A stretch of DNA of 64,000 bases from Escherichia phage Ge15, in the sequence record PP359696.1; one strand, given 5' to 3'. The notes below the pieces were generated by a model, which saw only the letters and a program-made list of their open reading frames with translations, was not told the DNA's origin and made no database searches. A program made the translations under genes and the position numbers. How positions within the stretch are numbered: the stretch's first letter is position 1; every line of letters starts with the position of its first letter. Below, in pieces: positions 25,459 to 60,039 of this stretch.

Positions 25459-25770
25459 ATGATTAGTTTTGAGCGATATGTGGTAGAGAGTTGGAAGGGT
25501 TTTGATATGTTCGGTAATGACTATTATTTCTATGAATGTAGTCTAAATCCTAGTTTTTGGGCTGGACGAGAACGAGAACTTGAAGAAATTAATAACCGTG
25601 CTGAATTGTTAGGTGAATTACCTACGGTTTATTTTACCTTTGATGCATCTGGATTTGTTATCCAGGTTTATTTTCCTGAAGAAAATTCTGGCGATGATTC
25701 TGTTAACCCGCCATACTGGGCTTATCAAGGAATTATTTCTCGTGGAACAAAACTCGAACTTAAAGAATAA
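25459..25770 (+). CDS. Hypothetical protein
   Basis: 103-aa ORF, AAGG RBS. Confidence 0.45.
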   Translation: MISFERYVVESWKGFDMFGNDYYFYECSLNPSFWAGRERELEEINNRAELLGELPTVYFTFDASGFVIQVYFPEENSGDDSVNPPYWAYQGIISRGTKLELKE

Positions 25771-27084: not shown

Positions 27085-27411
27085 ATGACTATTCAAATTA
27101 AAAACGCCATCAATTCTTATGCATATGATAAAGTAGTCTCTTTGCTAGAAAAAGGCAATATTGTAACTCCTCAAATTTTGGATAAATGGGAAAAAGAGCT
27201 TCATCAGACGATGAAACAGAATGATCAGAAAATTGGGCGCAATACTGTCCGTGAATTGTTGGTTCAATATATCTTGTCAGAATTTGATGTTAAAGCTTTT
27301 GGTGTAGAATCTAAAGCTTATCAAAAGCATGAAATTTCCGATAAAACTATTCGTCGTATGAAAAACCAACGCAAGAAAAAATTTGCTGACCTGAAAATTG
27401 CTAAGGTATGA
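27085..27411 (+). CDS. Hypothetical protein
   Basis: 108 aa, GAGG RBS. Confidence 0.45.
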   Translation: MTIQIKNAINSYAYDKVVSLLEKGNIVTPQILDKWEKELHQTMKQNDQKIGRNTVRELLVQYILSEFDVKAFGVESKAYQKHEISDKTIRRMKNQRKKKFADLKIAKV

Positions 27412-27629
27412 ATATGAACGAAGCTCTTATTAACGATTTACGTCTTGCCGGATATGAAGTAAATACAAATGGCATTGGTTTAACTCAAATTGAGGGAAAT
27501 GGATTCATCCTTGAGTATGAATTTAGCCAATGGTGGTTATATGCCAATTACGGCGAATTGATTGAATACGTTGACCAATTTGATTCACTAGATGCAGCTC
27601 TTGAAGCGGCTAAGTTGATGAATGTATGA
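27408..27629 (+). CDS. Hypothetical acidic protein
   Basis: 73 aa. Confidence 0.45.
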   Translation: MNMNEALINDLRLAGYEVNTNGIGLTQIEGNGFILEYEFSQWWLYANYGELIEYVDQFDSLDAALEAAKLMNV

Positions 27630-27895
27630 AATTTATTAATATTTCTATTACTATTGAAAATTATGGCATTTTCTATGTTGACCAATACATGAAAATTTCA
27701 TTTTTCCCAAATAAGACTGGTGTTGGATATTGGGAAAGCCATGTTTCTGAATTAAATGAAAGTGAATATGTTAGTACACATGAAAAGTTTTTAGACTTTT
27801 TATATCATGCTGATCTAACTAGTCATTATATAGATATTCATGAATTTAAAAAGATGATGGAGAAAGTGTTTCAAGCATACTGTTTACTTAGATAA
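27626..27895 (+). CDS. Hypothetical protein
   Basis: 89 aa. Confidence 0.45.
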   Translation: MKFINISITIENYGIFYVDQYMKISFFPNKTGVGYWESHVSELNESEYVSTHEKFLDFLYHADLTSHYIDIHEFKKMMEKVFQAYCLLR

Positions 27896-29467: not shown

Positions 29468-30670
29468 ATGAAAGTATGTATTTTTATGGCTCGAGGTCTT
29501 GAAGGTTGCGGCGTAACTAAATTTTCTCTCGAGCAGCGTGATTGGTTTATTAAAAATGGTCATGAAGTAACTTTGGTTTATGCTAAAGATAAATCATTTA
29601 CTCGTAATTGCGCGCATGATTATAAATCATTTTCAATTCCGGTTTTATTGGCAAAAGAATACGATAAAACACTTAAGCTGGTAAATGATTGTGATATTCT
29701 AATTATCAATTCAGTTCCTGCTACTTCAGTAGAAGAAGACACTATTAATAACTATAAAAAAATTATTGATAACATTAAACCTTCGGTTCGTGTTGTAGTT
29801 TATCAACATGACCATTCTTCTCTTTCTTTGCGCCGAAATTTGGGATTAGAAGAAACTGTTCGTCGAGCTGATGTTATTTTTAGTCATTCTGATAATGGCG
29901 ATTTTAATAAAGTTTTGATGAAAGAATGGTATCCAGAAACAGTTTCTCTGTTTGATGATATTGAAGAAGCACCGACTATATACAACTTTCAGCCTCCTAT
30001 GGATATTGCGAAGGTTCGATCAACATACTGGAAAGATGTTTCTGAAATTAATATGAATGTCAACCGTTGGATTGGTCGTACGACTACATGGAAAGGCTTT
30101 TATCAGATGTTTGATTTTCATGAAAAACATCTTAAACCTGCAGGACTAAGTACTATTATGGAAGGTCTGGAACGTTCTCCAGCGTTCATTCCTATTAAAG
30201 AAAAAGGAATTCCATACGAGTATTATCGTCTTCATCAAGTAGACCAAATTAAAATTGCTCCTAATTTACCAACGCAAATTCTCGATCGTTATGTAAATAG
30301 CGAAATGCTTGAACGTATGAGTAAATCCGGATTTGGTTATCAGTTGAGTAAGTTGGATAAAAAATATCTACAACGTTCTTTAGAATATACTCATCTCGAG
30401 CTTGGTGCATGTGGAACAATTCCGGTATTTTGGAAATCTACTGGCGAAAATTTAAAATTCCGTGTTGATAATACTCCTTTGACCTCGCATGATAGCGGTA
30501 TCATTTGGTTTGATGAAAATGATATGGAATCAACATTCGAGCGTATTAAAGAACTGTCATCTGACCGAGCTCTTTATGACCGTGAGCGAGAAAAAGCGTA
30601 TGAATTTTTGTATCAACATCAAGATTCAAGCTTCTGCTTTAAAGAACAGTTTGACATTATTACAAAATAA
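29468..30670 (+). CDS. agt: DNA alpha-glucosyltransferase (hmC alpha-glucosylation)
   Basis: 400 aa; length, position between 55 and 47 and N-terminus MKVCIFMARGLEGCGVTKF consistent with T4 alpha-gt as recalled; MotA-type middle promoter upstream. Confidence 0.88.
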   Translation: MKVCIFMARGLEGCGVTKFSLEQRDWFIKNGHEVTLVYAKDKSFTRNCAHDYKSFSIPVLLAKEYDKTLKLVNDCDILIINSVPATSVEEDTINNYKKIIDNIKPSVRVVVYQHDHSSLSLRRNLGLEETVRRADVIFSHSDNGDFNKVLMKEWYPETVSLFDDIEEAPTIYNFQPPMDIAKVRSTYWKDVSEINMNVNRWIGRTTTWKGFYQMFDFHEKHLKPAGLSTIMEGLERSPAFIPIKEKGIPYEYYRLHQVDQIKIAPNLPTQILDRYVNSEMLERMSKSGFGYQLSKLDKKYLQRSLEYTHLELGACGTIPVFWKSTGENLKFRVDNTPLTSHDSGIIWFDENDMESTFERIKELSSDRALYDREREKAYEFLYQHQDSSFCFKEQFDIITK

Positions 30671-37324: not shown

Positions 37325-37546
37325 ATGACTGCTATAACTCCGCAAGAATACATGGCGTCTCTTAAAGAAAAATATAATCTTTCTGCAACAGAAACACTTT
37401 TTGATTTACCAGAAAACCTCCAACTAAAATTTCAGGTAGAATTTCAAAAATTAGTTCACCCAGAACAAAAACACTTTACCGCAGTGGTTAAGTCAATTAA
37501 TGCAGATGGATTAACAATTTTTCACCGACAACTGGTATTAATTTAA
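37325..37546 (+). CDS. Hypothetical protein
   Basis: 73 aa from ATG 37325; followed by tetraloop terminator. Confidence 0.45.
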   Translation: MTAITPQEYMASLKEKYNLSATETLFDLPENLQLKFQVEFQKLVHPEQKHFTAVVKSINADGLTIFHRQLVLI

Positions 37547-37549
37547 GCA

Positions 37550-37570
37550 AGGGGCTTCGGCCCCTTATTT
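37550..37570 (+). terminator. Intrinsic terminator upstream of gene 43
   Basis: GGGGC-TTCG-GCCCC + TTATTT. Confidence 0.65.
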
Positions 37571-41136: not shown

Positions 41137-41388
41137 ATGGAAACTTTAGTAGCAGGTTCAATTTTTATGGTTTTAGTTTCAGGCGTGTTGGCTATTATTA
41201 TATACATGCTTCCGTGGTTCATCGCCTTGATGCGTGGGTCAAAATCGACAGTAGGAATCTTTTTCACATCTTTACTGTTTAACTGGTCAATCATTGGTTG
41301 GTTTATTACTTTTATTTGGTCAATTGCGGGTGAAACTAAAAAATCTGTACAGCAAAATCAAGTAATTATCATCAGAGAGAAGGAATGA
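41137..41388 (+). CDS. imm: Membrane protein, probable Imm (immunity to superinfection)
   Basis: 83 aa, two TM helices, located between 43 and 42 as T4 imm; size matches. Confidence 0.55.
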   Translation: METLVAGSIFMVLVSGVLAIIIYMLPWFIALMRGSKSTVGIFFTSLLFNWSIIGWFITFIWSIAGETKKSVQQNQVIIIREKE

Positions 41389-41534
41389 AAAGCAAAATTT
41401 TAGCAGTATTGCTTTTAATCTTGATGATTATAATAAGTATATACTATAGCGTAACAGTTCCTCTTATGATTCCGCCACTTATTATAGGTTGGAGTTTATT
41501 ACTGTTACAAATTAAATATGAATGCATCAATTGA
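41385..41534 (+). CDS. Hypothetical small hydrophobic protein
   Basis: 49-aa ORF not in track, ATGA overlap with upstream stop, two hydrophobic stretches. Confidence 0.3.
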   Translation: MKSKILAVLLLILMIIISIYYSVTVPLMIPPLIIGWSLLLLQIKYECIN

Positions 41535-41541
41535 GGTTTAA

Positions 41542-42282
41542 ATGATTAACGATTATATGACAGTTGAAGAAATCCGTCTTCATTTGGGGCTTGCATTAAA
41601 GGAAAAAGATTTCGTAGTTGATAAAACTGGCGTTAAAACTATTGAAATTATTGGCGCATCATTTGTAGCAGATGAACCATTTATTTTTGGCGCTCTTAAT
41701 GATGAATACATTCAGCGTGAACTTGAATGGTATAAATCTAAAAGTTTGTTTGTTAAAGATATTCCAGGTGAAACACCGAAGATTTGGCAACAGGTAGCAT
41801 CTTCTAAAGGCGAAATTAACTCGAATTATGGTTGGGCCATCTGGTCAGAAGATAACTATGCCCAGTATGATATGTGTTTAGCTGAACTTGGTCAAAATCC
41901 TGATTCTCGACGCGGTATCATGATTTATACTCGTCCATCCATGCAGTTTGACTACAATAAAGATGGTATGTCAGATTTCATGTGTACGAATACAGTACAG
42001 TACCTGATTCGTGATAAGAAAGTCAATGCAGTAGTGAGCATGCGTTCAAATGACGTTGTCTTCGGATTCCGTAATGATTATGCATGGCAAAAATACGTAC
42101 TAGATAAATTAGTATCTGATTTGAATGCAGGTGATTCAACTCGTCAGTATAAAGCAGGTTCTATTATATGGAATGTTGGAAGTCTTCATGTATATTCTCG
42201 TCATTTTTACTTGGTTGATCATTGGTGGAATACTGGCGAAACTCATATTGTGAAAAAAGATTATAATGGTGAGTGGAAATGA
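41542..42282 (+). CDS. 42: dCMP hydroxymethylase gp42
   Basis: 246 aa; thymidylate-synthase-like fold; near-identical to T4 gp42 as recalled (TVEEIRLHLGLALKEKDFVVDKTGVKTIEIIGASF...). Confidence 0.95.
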   Translation: MINDYMTVEEIRLHLGLALKEKDFVVDKTGVKTIEIIGASFVADEPFIFGALNDEYIQRELEWYKSKSLFVKDIPGETPKIWQQVASSKGEINSNYGWAIWSEDNYAQYDMCLAELGQNPDSRRGIMIYTRPSMQFDYNKDGMSDFMCTNTVQYLIRDKKVNAVVSMRSNDVVFGFRNDYAWQKYVLDKLVSDLNAGDSTRQYKAGSIIWNVGSLHVYSRHFYLVDHWWNTGETHIVKKDYNGEWK

Positions 42283-43121
42283 TTCAATTCGTAATTCCAA
42301 GCTATCAACGCGTAGGGGCAGTTTCTGCCCTTGATATGTTTCCGACTGATTATGAACCTCATATTGTAGTACGTGAACACGAAGAAAAAGCTTATTATGA
42401 CGCTTACGGGTCTAAAGCCAAAATTATAACTATTCCTGATGATGTTAATGGAATTGCTGGTACTCGTAAAGCAATTACTGATATGTATGCAGGTCAACGA
42501 ATCTGGATGATTGATGATGATACTACTATTCGTATGAGTTCAATGCGAAAGAAAGATGATCGTCGCTGTGTAGATAAAATTAATCAATTAACTCGTGAAC
42601 AGTTCTATGAATTGATTCAATACGTTGAAGATGCCATGGATTGTGGGTATTATCATGGTCATGCTCGTTTACCAATTTTTAAAATTACTTCATCTTGGGG
42701 TAATTATCGTGAAAATTCATATGGATTCACGAATACTTGGTATGACCTTGGAAAACTTACGACAGAACAAATTGGGTATGGAAAAATTGATTTATGCGAA
42801 GATATGTATGCATTTCTCAATTTAATTAATCAAGGTTATCCGCATTTGGCCTTGTTCAAATATCTAGTTGTATCTGGAAAAGCACAAGCTCCTGGCGGGT
42901 GTAGTTCAATTCGTAGTAATTCTAAACATAATAGAGCGCTTGAGCAAATCAATAGAGAGTTTCCAGAGCAAGCTCGTTGGAAAACATCGAATATTGAAAA
43001 ACGAAAATCGTTGGGTGAAGAAGATGAACCACTAAAGGTTCTTCGCATGTGTGTTTCGCGTAAAGAAAAATCAGAAGCATTTCATAAGTTTAATGCTATT
43101 CATCCAATAGCAGTTGATTAA
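42273..43121 (+). CDS. Putative glycosyltransferase occupying the beta-gt locus (not T4 beta-gt)
   Basis: 282 aa between 42 and uvsX; contains acidic WMIDDDTTIR (DxD-like) motif; does not resemble T4 beta-gt sequence as recalled. Confidence 0.4.
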   Translation: MEMIQFVIPSYQRVGAVSALDMFPTDYEPHIVVREHEEKAYYDAYGSKAKIITIPDDVNGIAGTRKAITDMYAGQRIWMIDDDTTIRMSSMRKKDDRRCVDKINQLTREQFYELIQYVEDAMDCGYYHGHARLPIFKITSSWGNYRENSYGFTNTWYDLGKLTTEQIGYGKIDLCEDMYAFLNLINQGYPHLALFKYLVVSGKAQAPGGCSSIRSNSKHNRALEQINREFPEQARWKTSNIEKRKSLGEEDEPLKVLRMCVSRKEKSEAFHKFNAIHPIAVD

Positions 43122-43198
43122 TGCCTAAATTTATTGTGTTATAATTACTCTATCTTTAACCAGTGAGGAAAATATAATGATGCCTATGGAAAAAATGA

Positions 43199-44380
43199 AT
43201 GTCTATTGCAGATTTAAAATCCCGTTTGATTAAAGCTTCCACTTCTAAAATGACTGCTGAACTGACTACATCTAAATTCTTTAATGAAAAGGATGTAATC
43301 CGTACAAAAATCCCAATGCTTAATATCGCTATTTCTGGTGCGATTGATGGTGGTATGCAGTCTGGTTTAACCATTTTTGCAGGTCCTTCTAAACACTTTA
43401 AATCAAATATGTCTTTGACTATGGTTGCGGCGTATTTGAACAAATATCCTGACGCGGTTTGTCTATTCTATGATAGCGAATTTGGTATTACTCCAGCTTA
43501 TTTGCGATCCATGGGAGTTGACCCGGAACGAGTAATTCATACACCAATCCAGTCAGTTGAACAACTGAAAATTGATATGGTGAATCAGCTTGAAGCTATT
43601 GAGCGCGGTGAAAAAGTTATTGTATTCATCGACTCAATTGGTAATATGGCTTCTAAGAAAGAAACGGAAGATGCCTTGAATGAAAAATCTGTGGCAGATA
43701 TGACTCGTGCTAAATCACTGAAGTCATTATTCCGTATTGTTACTCCTTATTTTAGCATTAAAAATATTCCATGCGTTGCGGTTAACCATACAATTGAAAC
43801 AATTGAAATGTTTAGTAAAACCGTGATGACAGGTGGTACAGGCGTAATGTATTCGGCTGATACTGTATTCATTATCGGTAAACGCCAGATTAAAGATGGT
43901 TCTGATCTTCAGGGGTATCAATTTGTTCTAAATGTAGAAAAATCTCGTACCGTTAAAGAAAAAAGTAAATTCTTTATTGATGTTAAATTTGACGGCGGTA
44001 TCGATCCTTATTCTGGATTGTTAGATATGGCTCTTGAATTAGGATTTGTAGTAAAACCTAAAAATGGCTGGTATGCTCGTGAATTTCTTGATGAAGAAAC
44101 CGGCGAGATGATTCGCGAAGAAAAATCTTGGCGTGCAAAAGATACCAACTGTACTACATTCTGGGGTCCTTTATTTAAGCATCAACCATTCCGAGATGCT
44201 ATTAAACGTGCTTATCAGTTAGGTGCTATTGATAGTAATGAAATTGTTGAAGCTGAAGTTGATGAATTGATTAACTCAAAGGTTGAAAAATTTAAATATC
44301 CAGAAAGTAAAAGTAAATCAGCAGCTGATTTAGAAACTGACCTAGATCAGTTAAGTGATATGGAAGAATTTAATGAATAA
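43199..44380 (+). CDS. uvsX: UvsX recombinase (RecA/Rad51 family)
   Basis: 393 aa; Walker A GPSKHFKS; highly similar to T4 UvsX as recalled. Confidence 0.95.
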   Translation: MSIADLKSRLIKASTSKMTAELTTSKFFNEKDVIRTKIPMLNIAISGAIDGGMQSGLTIFAGPSKHFKSNMSLTMVAAYLNKYPDAVCLFYDSEFGITPAYLRSMGVDPERVIHTPIQSVEQLKIDMVNQLEAIERGEKVIVFIDSIGNMASKKETEDALNEKSVADMTRAKSLKSLFRIVTPYFSIKNIPCVAVNHTIETIEMFSKTVMTGGTGVMYSADTVFIIGKRQIKDGSDLQGYQFVLNVEKSRTVKEKSKFFIDVKFDGGIDPYSGLLDMALELGFVVKPKNGWYAREFLDEETGEMIREEKSWRAKDTNCTTFWGPLFKHQPFRDAIKRAYQLGAIDSNEIVEAEVDELINSKVEKFKYPESKSKSAADLETDLDQLSDMEEFNE

Positions 44381-49976: not shown

Positions 49977-50176
49977 TGGCTCGTTTAAATAAACGCCAGC
50001 TTAAGAAAGCCCGCAAGAAACGTATTGACCAGCTATTTAAAAATTATGATAAGGAGCTCGTATGTGAGCTCTTATCTAATCAGCTTCGTGTGGTTGATTG
50101 GGTTGTAGAAGAAGGTCCTGATGAAATTTTTGTCAGCGAAGAAGCCTTAAAATTAATTATAGAACATTCAAAATGA
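49973..50176 (+). CDS. Hypothetical basic protein
   Basis: 67 aa, N-terminal KRQLKKARKKR. Confidence 0.4.
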   Translation: MMARLNKRQLKKARKKRIDQLFKNYDKELVCELLSNQLRVVDWVVEEGPDEIFVSEEALKLIIEHSK

Positions 50177-50346
50177 AAATATCCAAAGAAGAATTTATTA
50201 GACGTCAAAAAGCTTTAATTAATTTATACGAGTGGTATGCTTATCAGCTTAAAGTAGATAGCTCTAATATAAATGCTGTAATGGCTTTATATAAACAAAT
50301 TCAAGATGAACACGAATTCCTGGCACAAGTTTTCATTGAAGACTGA
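50173..50346 (+). CDS. Hypothetical small protein
   Basis: 57-aa ORF not in track; ends immediately before soc late promoter. Confidence 0.3.
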   Translation: MKISKEEFIRRQKALINLYEWYAYQLKVDSSNINAVMALYKQIQDEHEFLAQVFIED

Positions 50347-50354
50347 TATAAATA
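50347..50354 (+). promoter_or_regulatory. T4 late promoter of soc
   Basis: Exact TATAAATA about 30 nt upstream of soc ATG. Confidence 0.8.
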
Positions 50355-50385
50355 CACCTGTAATTAAACAATAAAGGAGTTTATT

Positions 50386-50622
50386 ATGGGTGGTTTCGTT
50401 AACATCAAGACCTTTACTCATCCAGCAGGTGAAGGCAAAGAAGTTAAAGGTATGGAAGTTTCTGTAGCATTTGATGTATATTCAAATGAACACCGTATTG
50501 CAGATTCTCATTATCAAATCTTTCCGTCAGAAAAAGCAGCTTATTCTGATGTAGTTTCCGATGCAGCAACTTGGAAAACTAAGAATGCTGCAATGTTTAC
50601 ACCTACAGAAATAGGTGGTTAA
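50386..50622 (+). CDS. soc: Small outer capsid protein Soc
   Basis: 78 aa; VNIKTF...SVAF...FPSEKAAYS matches T4 Soc as recalled; TATAAATA late promoter and AAAGGAG RBS; terminator downstream. Confidence 0.85.
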   Translation: MGGFVNIKTFTHPAGEGKEVKGMEVSVAFDVYSNEHRIADSHYQIFPSEKAAYSDVVSDAATWKTKNAAMFTPTEIGG

Positions 50623-58023: not shown

Positions 58024-58527
58024 ATGAAAATTTATCGTGTTGAATCATCATTTAGTATTCTTAATTATGAAGATGCTATAACAATACGTCGAGATCTTTG
58101 TGTTCAAATAACTCCGTACAGGAGTATAATAGATTCATGGAGTGAAGAGTGGTTATTACACGTAGGTTATGACAGACCTAATTTTATGCATCATAGTAAT
58201 GATAATAAAAGAATTCCTGTGCCGCATGAAGACAAATTATTAGTTAAAAATGCTAATATAGCAATTAATACTAATTTTGAGAAAGAAGAATATGTAGGCG
58301 TAGATCACTATATTCCAGGATGGTTTATAGCTCTTTATCATTTTGCTTTCGCTAGCGAATATGATATGATGAGATGGTTCACACGAGAAGAGCGTGAAGA
58401 ATTAGCTTCTAAAGGATTTTATCTCGCTGTATACGAAGTACCTGATGACCAAGTTATCATTGGCGGTCATCAAGTAATGTTCCGCAAGTCACATGCCGAA
58501 TTAAAAGGCTTTATTACCTTAGATTAA
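58024..58527 (+). CDS. Hypothetical protein
   Basis: 167 aa from ATG 58024 downstream of early promoter. Confidence 0.45.
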   Translation: MKIYRVESSFSILNYEDAITIRRDLCVQITPYRSIIDSWSEEWLLHVGYDRPNFMHHSNDNKRIPVPHEDKLLVKNANIAINTNFEKEEYVGVDHYIPGWFIALYHFAFASEYDMMRWFTREEREELASKGFYLAVYEVPDDQVIIGGHQVMFRKSHAELKGFITLD

Positions 58528-58539
58528 GGGGAAAACATC

Positions 58540-59034
58540 ATGAATATCAGTACTACAGCTACTTACATCCTGAAAGACGAAAAGCAAATCAACTGGTATG
58601 GTGCTTCAGTGCGAGCTTATGAAAAGTTTTGTGAAATTTTAGGCGCCACTCAAGGTAATAGTTTCACTATTGTTAACTTCATCAAACAAGCTGAAGGCCC
58701 TTGGTTATTCTTAGAAATTAAAAATTCATACGGTACAATTTCTACTACCGCCCTTCCAAGCACCGACTTTGAACTGTTGATTGAAGAAGTAGAACCCGTT
58801 AAAGACATCTGTATTGATATGGATATCGCTTGTATGTACGGTACTCTGGTTAAGCCTATTGCGCCTACTGATTTGTTGTGTAAAGCTGTTTCAATTCGAC
58901 GTCCGTTCGCAGGTCCAGTGAGTGGATGGGTAACTGATCAGTGGATTGAAGACGGTGTTGAACTTCTGAACGTTGTTCATGCAGGTGATTTTAGTGTAGT
59001 TCCACGTAGTGCAGTAATTAATATCCTTAATTAA
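58540..59034 (+). CDS. MotB-family-like protein (paralog 1)
   Basis: 164 aa; C-terminal block GWVTDQWIEDGVELLNVVHAGDFSVV shared with next two ORFs. Confidence 0.45.
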   Translation: MNISTTATYILKDEKQINWYGASVRAYEKFCEILGATQGNSFTIVNFIKQAEGPWLFLEIKNSYGTISTTALPSTDFELLIEEVEPVKDICIDMDIACMYGTLVKPIAPTDLLCKAVSIRRPFAGPVSGWVTDQWIEDGVELLNVVHAGDFSVVPRSAVINILN

Positions 59035-59106
59035 GTTTACTTTATAGAGAGCCTGTTATAATGGCTCTCATGGAGAATAAATCTTAACAACAAAGAGAGA
59101 AAAATT

Positions 59107-59580
59107 ATGATTACTATCGGTGAAATTAAGCGTGTATCGTCTGCATCTCGTTCTAAAGCTGCAGGTCGTCTAGTTGAAGTGGTAGGACTTCGTACTAATG
59201 GTACTGGTCGTGTTATAGAAGTTAAAGTTCGAATCATTCCTAGTTCTGGAAAAACTGAAACTCAGTACGCTTACGTAAGTCCTAAATTTCTGGAAACTCG
59301 TGTTAGCTCTCATTTTGCTTCTGTTGAAGAAGTTGAATCCACTGAGTCTAATGCACAATTTAAATGGGCGTTGTGTAAAGGCGTTGAATTTGTAACTGAT
59401 GAAGAATTCGATTATATTGATGATTTCGCTGGTCCAAGTAAAACTGATAGGATGTGTGGCTTCATCACAGACCAATGGGTTGAAGATGGTGAAAAGCTCT
59501 ACAATATCGTATTCTTAGGTGACTTCCGGGTTGTTGAAGAATCTGAAATCACTCGTTATGCTTCTCCTCGTAAAGCTTAA
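59107..59580 (+). CDS. MotB-family-like protein (paralog 2)
   Basis: 157 aa; N-terminal VSSASRSKAAGRLVEVVG and C-terminal GFITDQWVEDGEKLYNIVFLGDFRVV. Confidence 0.45.
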   Translation: MITIGEIKRVSSASRSKAAGRLVEVVGLRTNGTGRVIEVKVRIIPSSGKTETQYAYVSPKFLETRVSSHFASVEEVESTESNAQFKWALCKGVEFVTDEEFDYIDDFAGPSKTDRMCGFITDQWVEDGEKLYNIVFLGDFRVVEESEITRYASPRKA

Positions 59581-59589
59581 GGAATTATT

Positions 59590-60009
59590 ATGAATATTGT
59601 AAATCTCTCTACTGGTGATTACGTATATGTATCCGTTGCTTCTCGTTCTAAAGTTGCAGGAAAGCTGGTTGAAGTTCTTTCTGTAAGTGATCCAGTTTTT
59701 GGTCGTAACGAGGTTAAAGTTCGTGACGCTGATGGTAACATTGGTTATGTCTCAAGTCAGTTCATTGAGCCAGAAGAAAGCGCATTTAAATGGAAACTTT
59801 GTTCTTCAGTTTTAGTTGTAAAAGACCATAAATTCACAATTGCGGCGGCAACAGATGGAACTCCATGGACAACGAATCAAGTCGCTGGTTTTATTTCGGA
59901 CCGTTGGGTAGAAGATGGTGTCAAGCTCTACAATATTGTTTTTGCAGGCCAGTTCATGGTAGTTCCTGAATTCCAAATTAAAAAATGGTGCGAAGCAGCT
60001 TTAGCATAA
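59590..60009 (+). CDS. MotB-family-like protein (paralog 3)
   Basis: 139 aa; VSVASRSKVAGKLVEVL and GFISDRWVEDGVKLYNIVFAGQFMVV. Confidence 0.45.
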   Translation: MNIVNLSTGDYVYVSVASRSKVAGKLVEVLSVSDPVFGRNEVKVRDADGNIGYVSSQFIEPEESAFKWKLCSSVLVVKDHKFTIAAATDGTPWTTNQVAGFISDRWVEDGVKLYNIVFAGQFMVVPEFQIKKWCEAALA

Positions 60010-60039
60010 ATTTGCATAAAGTTTAAAATTTTTTCATAA

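Follow-up and report, generated by a model that had tools for sequence, protein, structure and literature searches.

The window analyzed here is a 64,000-nucleotide stretch of the genome of Escherichia phage Ge15 (PP359696.1). Between gene 42, encoding dCMP hydroxymethylase, and the recombinase gene uvsX, it contains an unbroken open reading frame at positions 42273..43121 of the plus strand. Counted from its first codon, GTG, this frame encodes 282 amino acids. The ATG that forms its third codon gives a protein of 280 amino acids and is likely the true start of the gene, which we call ba-gt (Table 1). The equivalent ATG is the annotated start in all homologs examined (T2, KIT03, the RefSeq record of T6, and EH2), and the annotated T2, KIT03 and EH2 genes have the same length as that of the window, while the RefSeq T6 gene is one codon shorter. 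The upstream GTG and GAA codons are probably outside the translated protein, since all annotated homologs begin at the ATG and the Shine-Dalgarno-like sequence would overlap the GTG.

An earlier note on this DNA, made from the sequence alone, had claimed that the start of the reading frame overlaps the end of gene 42. The two genes do overlap, as the ATG (42279-42281) shares bases with the TGA stop codon of gene 42 (42280-42282), and the same 4-base ATGA overlap is annotated in T2, KIT03, T6 (RefSeq), and EH2. This arrangement suggests that translation of ba-gt may be coupled to that of gene 42. A scan of positions 41300-43400 for promoters and terminators gave counts not above those in shuffled sequence.

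Table 1. Coordinates of ba-gt, its sequence features, and associated genes in the window
Feature	Position	Strand	Basis and remarks
ba-gt (g-gt, ggt, TAGT) CDS, beta-glucosyl-HMC-alpha-glucosyltransferase	42279..43121	+	280 aa plus stop; ORF, PHROG 842, PF20691, identity to KIT03/T2
GTG GAA, two in-frame codons 5' of the ATG	42273..42278	+	taken in by the mechanical ORF caller
Shine-Dalgarno-like GGTGAG	42268..42273	+	putative, role suggested by sequence; within the 3'-terminal part of gene 42; 5-nt spacer to the ATG at 42279
ATGA, ba-gt start and gene 42 stop	42279..42282	+	read from the sequence
Arg11 codon CGC, N-terminal IPSYQR motif	42309..42311	+	R11 invariant in the family alignment; only T2 has His
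D79-D80-D81 codons, candidate DxD metal/UDP-sugar-binding motif	42513..42521	+	invariant in the family alignment; placed at a strand end in the AlphaFold2 model
Pro251 codon CCA	43029..43031	+	P251 shared by at least 90% of the aligned family members, adjoining invariant E250; Ser in T2
Gene 42, dCMP hydroxymethylase, source of the hmdCMP from which hmC DNA is made	41542..42282	+	96.3% aa identity to T4 gp42; PHROG 160 (thymidylate-synthase family); annotated as gene 42 in syntenic records
uvsX recombinase, downstream flank of the slot	43199..44380	+	90.0% aa identity to T4 UvsX; PHROG 97
a-gt, alpha-glucosyltransferase, makes the alpha-glucosyl-hmC acceptor for ba-gt	29468..30670	+	PHROG 2888, E=3.3e-222, full length; collinear with KIT03 a-gt
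Gene 56, dCTPase/dUTPase, keeps unmodified C out of phage DNA	49458..49976	+	collinear alignment with KIT03 gene 56 (annotated 27180-27698); assigned by collinearity

The gene order 43, imm.1, imm, 42, ba-gt, uvsX, 40, 41 is common to T2, KIT03, and both T6 records, and the slot between gene 42 and uvsX has the same content in the window as in every context examined (T2, KIT03, T6, and EH2). The flanking genes had been described in the earlier note as near-identical to those of T4, which is a fair statement for gene 42 but overstated for uvsX, given their respective amino acid identities. The genes for the expected partners of ba-gt, namely a-gt, gene 42, and gene 56, all lie within the window, with gene 56 placed by its collinearity with KIT03. 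The PHROG match confirmed the alpha-glucosyltransferase gene at the location proposed before.

Compared over 24 kb, many Tequatrovirus genomes have 96-97% identity to the window, and none of them is identical to it. Judged by this sequence comparison, the window belongs to an ordinary member of the genus. Relative to KIT03, it has extra small open reading frames at positions 25459-25770 and 37325-37546, and the mobD gene of KIT03 is missing from it.

Family assignment and distribution

Two families, and only these, were matched by the ba-gt protein. The match to PHROG 842, described as 'beta-glucosyl-HMC-alpha-glucosyltransferase', has an E-value of 4.9e-89 and covers residues 1-275. The match to Pfam PF20691 (TAGT, TET-associated glycosyltransferase) scores 38.8 bits, above the gathering cutoff of 27.5 bits, and aligns residues 3-207 of the protein with positions 2-205 of the 205-position profile. 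No NCBIfam model matches either ba-gt or a-gt. Arabinosyltransferases of the RB69/Mosigvirus type go with a 5-hydroxycytosine pathway; the window has gene 42, of the hmC pathway, together with a-gt, and is 96-97% identical to Tequatrovirus records.

The gene is widely distributed. A megablast search yielded about 479 phage records at 90% nucleotide identity or more, including 445 at 95-99%. Most of these records name a beta-glucosyl-HMC-alpha-glucosyltransferase or a glucosyltransferase adjoining dCMP hydroxymethylase, and some a hypothetical protein. At the protein level (tblastn), identity is 100% to KIT03, 98.2% to T2, and 98% to both T6 records. The comparison with the T2 and T6 enzymes that the earlier note had proposed thus gives a clear match. 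Homologs with about 64-66% identity occur in T4-like phages of Klebsiella, Enterobacter, Salmonella, and Citrobacter, and more remote ones in Serratia phage Muldoon (47%) and phage PhiJL001 (24%).

Codon comparison revealed 21 synonymous and no non-synonymous differences from the KIT03 gene, and 29 synonymous and five non-synonymous differences from that of T2. This synonymous excess shows that the reading frame is a real gene under purifying selection and not an artifact. We also considered whether the window had been recoded, as its protein is 100% identical to that of KIT03, yet the gene has at most 97.7% nucleotide identity to any record. This explanation was rejected because the 24-kb surroundings also differ from their best matches, at 96-97% identity, and because the changes affect third codon positions, which is what purifying selection would leave.

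Comparison with T4 beta-glucosyltransferase

In T4, beta-gt, a member of Pfam PF09198, follows gene 42 at the syntenic position. The earlier account of this T4 slot was correct in naming beta-gt but incomplete, as the slot contains two genes, beta-gt and the homing endonuclease gene segA; the latter is likewise absent from the slot of Ge15. The ba-gt protein had been described as irreconcilable with T4 beta-gt, and our searches agree. A homologous relationship was rejected, with the best BLASTP match between the two at E=3.3 and no match of ba-gt to PF09198 at E<=1, and a tblastn search of T4 beta-gt against the whole 64-kb window returned nothing at E<=10.

The two enzymes also differ in fold and acceptor. 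The fold of T4 beta-gt is GT-B (PDB 1JG7, as cited in PMC13216743), whereas that of ba-gt is modeled as GT-A, and the two-Rossmann-domain architecture of GT-B enzymes was looked for in ba-gt and not found. T4 beta-gt glucosylates free hmC, whereas the acceptor of ba-gt is the glucose of alpha-glucosyl-hmC. Both take glucose from UDP-glucose and join it to modified phage DNA through a beta-glycosidic bond (PMC6024577; PMC13216743). The resemblance in action between the two enzymes is a loose one that goes no further than this.

Predicted fold and acidic motif

We built an AlphaFold2 model of the ba-gt protein from a 10-sequence family alignment. The model has a mean pLDDT of 71.6 and a pTM of 0.76. 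Residues 1-80, the N-terminal nucleotide-binding half, have pLDDT values of 78-93, while the acceptor-binding half is poorly defined, with pLDDT below 50 at residues 87-100, 130-149, and 200-210. The modeled fold matches GT-A enzymes of the GT2 family at 7-14% sequence identity, including AvpGT (9jma), GlfT2 (4fix), TarP (6h1j), TarS (5tze), and cellulose synthase (4p00). The cellular GT2 enzymes act on lipid, polysaccharide or teichoic acid acceptors, in contrast to ba-gt, whose acceptor is a sugar on DNA. At the sequence level, the protein had no match to a Pfam GT2 family at E<=1, and a phmmer search of the PDB found no solved relative, its best matches (E=0.75 or worse) being spurious ones of the His-tag type. 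A published study that identifies the enzyme with PF20691 likewise found a GT-A fold in an AlphaFold3 model of the T6 protein; there TAGT groups as the sister of GT2, in contrast to alpha-GT and beta-GT with their GT-B folds (PMC13216743).

The acidic segment WMIDDDTTIR, which had been likened to the DxD motif of GT-A glycosyltransferases, corresponds to residues 76-85 of the 280-residue protein. Its three aspartates, D79, D80, and D81, are invariant in the family alignment, which includes sequences as low as 32% in identity. In the model they lie at the end of the strand formed by residues 74-79 and ahead of the strand formed by residues 82-85, and such a strand end is the canonical site of the DxD motif in GT-A enzymes. 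The proposed likeness is supported by the modeled fold and by conservation. From the fold class, D79-D81 would be the motif that binds the metal and UDP-glucose, and the mechanism would be an inverting one.

Every hallmark of the T2/T6 family that we looked for is present in the window: the protein is homologous over its full length, scores above the PF20691 threshold, and combines a GT-A fold with the acidic motif, and the gene is syntenic and accompanied by its partners. The T2 and T6 genes occupy the same slot between gene 42 and uvsX, have the same ATGA overlap with gene 42, and are accompanied by the same partners, a-gt, 42, and 56. We conclude with high confidence that the gene encodes a beta-glucosyl-HMC-alpha-glucosyltransferase of the T2/T6 type, that is, a UDP-glucose-dependent and presumably inverting GT2-like enzyme with the GT-A fold. 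The original cloning of the T2 and T6 genes was reportedly described by Winkler and Rueger (Nucleic Acids Res 1993).

Allelic variation

The protein of the window is identical to that of KIT03. The EH2 enzyme differs from it by three conservative substitutions only (K46R, K92R, and I101V). The T2 enzyme differs by R11H, K46R, K92R, I101V, and P251S, and the T6 enzyme by Y40N, K46R, D55G, K92R, I101V, and R106H. The RefSeq T6 gene is full length and has two Asp codons in the aspartate run instead of three. In the other T6 record, MH550421, codon 10 of the gene is changed from CAG to the amber codon TAG, and the annotated protein starts at Met20.

The T2 enzyme is set apart from that of EH2 by two substitutions alone, R11H and P251S, and at both sites the window has the state of EH2 and T6 (R11 and P251). 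Among the approximately 479 records with the gene, a 30-mer containing the His11 codon was found only in seven T2 records and in SV76, a minimum count, since a record must also match the bases around the codon to contain the 30-mer. The five close loci in IMG/VR, too few for a frequency estimate, all have R11.

T2 has about 5% of its hmC in the gentiobiosyl form, against about 72% in T6, and about 25% is bare (bioRxiv 10.64898/2026.02.25.707755; PMC6024577). This difference between T2 and T6-like phages has been known for decades. The glucose content of T2 and T6 is heritable and recombines in crosses (Jesaitis 1961; PMC2195108). Because R11H and P251S are the sole differences between the T2 and EH2 enzymes, lie at conserved positions, and the trait is heritable, they are candidates for the cause of low gentiobiosylation in T2. 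We tentatively suggest, as a possibility that is itself rather doubtful, that one or both of them are hypomorphic changes behind the contrast between about 5% gentiobiosyl-hmC in T2 and about 70% in T6-like phages. Expression or other loci could just as well account for the difference. If the two substitutions are indeed responsible, the window would come from a high-gentiobiosyl phage.

Discussion

The earlier note had proposed that the reading frame encodes an alternative hmC-DNA sugar transferase, giving one that adds a second sugar (gentiobiosyl type) as an example. This proposal agrees with our homology-based assignment to the known T2/T6 enzyme, whose reaction was established in published T6 knock-outs. 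In place of beta-gt, which they lack, T2 and T6 encode another transferase, which converts alpha-glucosyl-5hmC into gentiobiosyl-5hmC by attaching a second glucose in beta linkage (bioRxiv 10.64898/2026.02.25.707755; PMC6024577). The product has been known since the early 1960s (Kuno and Lehman 1962, cited by PMC13216743). In the T6 knock-out studies, the enzyme was found to place a beta-1,6 glucose on alpha-glucosyl-hmC (PMC11078745; bioRxiv 10.64898/2026.02.25.707755). According to the authors, the DNA of T6 delta-ba-gt carries alpha-glucosyl-hmC only, presumably at about 75% of cytosines (PMC11078745). The Brig1 glycosylase degrades this DNA in vitro and does not degrade wild-type T6 DNA, and loss of the gene raises the sensitivity of the phage to this enzyme (PMC11078745). 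Similarly, BapA frees glucose from the DNA of the deletion mutant and not from that of wild-type T6 (bioRxiv 10.64898/2026.02.25.707755).

The novelty implied for this locus does not hold. Many GenBank and RefSeq entries already name the enzyme, and the synteny of TAGT with T4 beta-GT has been published (PMC13390438), as have the reaction and the fold class. The gene is an ordinary T4-like phage gene, and nothing about it is new.

The extent of modification varies among Tequatroviruses that have the gene, so that the gene alone does not fix it (PMC13390438). In seven of ten Tequatroviruses from Durham, including EH2, LC-MS detected about one third hmdC, about two thirds alpha-gentiobiosyl-hmdC, and background alpha-glucosyl-hmdC, while in the other three the ratio of hmC, glucosyl-hmC, and gentiobiosyl-hmC was 1:2:2 (PMC13390438). 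Ge15 might accordingly be expected to resemble T2, with mostly alpha-monoglucosyl-hmC and a few percent of gentiobiosyl-hmC, as the T2 gene encodes a 98.2% identical enzyme in a phage with only about 5% of the doubly glucosylated base (bioRxiv 10.64898/2026.02.25.707755; PMC6024577; PMC11078745). We regard such a low level as unlikely. The protein of the window lacks both T2-specific changes, and the sequence context of His11 is limited to the T2 and SV76 records. Moreover, only three conservative differences separate the window from the EH2 enzyme, which belongs to a phage with about two thirds gentiobiosyl-hmC, and this high level was the pattern of the Durham majority (PMC13390438).

Two further readings concern the enzyme itself. 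Homologs of TAGT occur together with alpha-GT, with beta-GT, or alone (PMC13216743), from which specificity probably varies across the family, and our sequence search found no solved structure for any of its members. An enzyme of this family with a different donor sugar or linkage, or one that glycosylates free hmC, is nevertheless very improbable in Ge15, where the protein is 98% identical to the T2/T6 enzymes and 100% identical to that of KIT03. The published variation concerns distant homologs, and the presence of the partner a-gt also argues against altered specificity. That the gene is a decaying or non-functional remnant has a precedent in the disrupted copy of T6 record MH550421, but it is hardly credible for an intact, full-length reading frame that retains all family-invariant residues and has accumulated only synonymous differences from KIT03 (21 against none).

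With ba-gt as a T2/T6-type transferase, the following pathway is proposed for Ge15. The products of genes 42 and 56 would ensure that the phage DNA carries 5-hydroxymethylcytosine, and alpha-gt would add an alpha-linked glucose to roughly three quarters of the hmC. The ba-gt enzyme would then extend this first glucose with another one, linked beta-1,6, to form gentiobiosyl-hmC, and the second sugar would shield the DNA from defenses that recognize alpha-glucosyl-hmC, such as the Brig1 glycosylase. Such a pathway would give DNA of the T6 type, with hmC, alpha-glucosyl-hmC, and gentiobiosyl-hmC, and not of the T4 type, with alpha- and beta-monoglucosyl-hmC. Since only K46R, K92R, and I101V separate the window from the EH2 enzyme, and a-gt, 42, and 56 are all present, we predict a high, T6/EH2-like fraction, with most glucosylated hmC carrying gentiobiose. 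The reaction, knock-out phenotype, and nucleoside composition are known from the literature on T6 and the near-identical EH2, and would extend to Ge15 by analogy.

On this reading, Ge15 should be annotated as a phage with T6-type rather than T4-type DNA. This DNA type would predict the sensitivity of the phage to modification-dependent defenses, including Brig1, enzymes of the GmrSD/BrxU type, and Brig3/BapA, and also the behavior of its DNA with restriction enzymes and in sequencing.

Sequence variation of ba-gt in T6 and T2

The beta-glucosyl-HMC-alpha-glucosyltransferase gene ba-gt differs in sequence between the two T6 records compared, MH550421 (locus L004) and RefSeq NC_054907 (locus L005, 4135-4974). 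In MH550421, codon 10 is an amber TAG (approximately 4951-4953 of L004, minus strand), and the annotated CDS begins at Met20, yielding a protein of 261 aa. The RefSeq T6 gene has CAG at codon 10 and is full length (279 aa), with one codon deleted within the invariant D79-D80-D81 run, the candidate DxD motif. Both changes are odd given the 72% gentiobiosylation of T6 (the second glucose being the one added by the ba-gt product), and may reflect either mutations particular to individual stocks or errors in the sequencing.

The T2 protein (L001, 3001-3843) differs from that of phage EH2 (L011, 1201-2043) in only two residues, R11H and P251S. In the family alignment, residue 11 is invariant and residue 251 is at least 90% conserved; the window encodes R11 (codon 42309-42311) and P251 (codon 43029-43031). 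The sequence context of the His11 codon occurs only in the T2 and SV76 records. According to published LC-MS, about two thirds of the hmC in EH2 DNA is gentiobiosyl-hmC (PMC13390438). Judged from sequence, R11H and P251S are candidate causes of the low gentiobiosylation of T2 (~5%).

Gene content differences among the T-even phages

In T4, the GIY-YIG homing endonuclease gene segA lies between b-gt, the beta-glucosyltransferase gene, and uvsX. In contrast, segA is absent from T2, T6, KIT03 and the window, where only a 77-nt intergenic spacer (43122-43198 in the window) is present. The window also lacks the homing endonuclease gene mobD annotated in KIT03 (L003, 9383-10237), and approximately 860 bp of KIT03 are skipped in the blastn alignment at window position ~32320, the junction of 46.1 and gene 46.

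Additional small ORFs were located in the window (see table). The 49-aa ORF corresponds to '42.1' in KIT03 and is also annotated in EH2, whereas the records of T4, T2 and T6 that were examined carry no annotation for it. The regA-gene 43 intergenic region that holds the 73-aa ORF is just 78 nt long in T4 and KIT03, with no ORF, and the 103-aa ORF is an insertion relative to KIT03, which has ~24 nt at the matching site.

Small ORFs and a hairpin in the window
Feature	Coordinates	Strand	PHROG	Location
103-aa ORF	25459-25770	+	2749, unknown function (E=1e-48)	between 55.8 and nrdH
73-aa ORF	37325-37546	+	3826, unknown function (E=2.4e-37)	regA-gene 43 intergenic region
GC-rich hairpin GGGGCTTCGGCCCC	~37551-37564			after the 73-aa ORF
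49-aa hydrophobic ORF	41385-41534	+	3610	between imm and gene 42; overlaps imm stop

Two blocks of the window, 50085-50611 and 58055-60013, are either unaligned with KIT03 or only ~77% identical to it, whereas their flanks are 95-97% identical. These blocks, the soc.1/soc and motB.1/motB.2 regions, look like the usual mosaic replacement of accessory genes in T-even phages.
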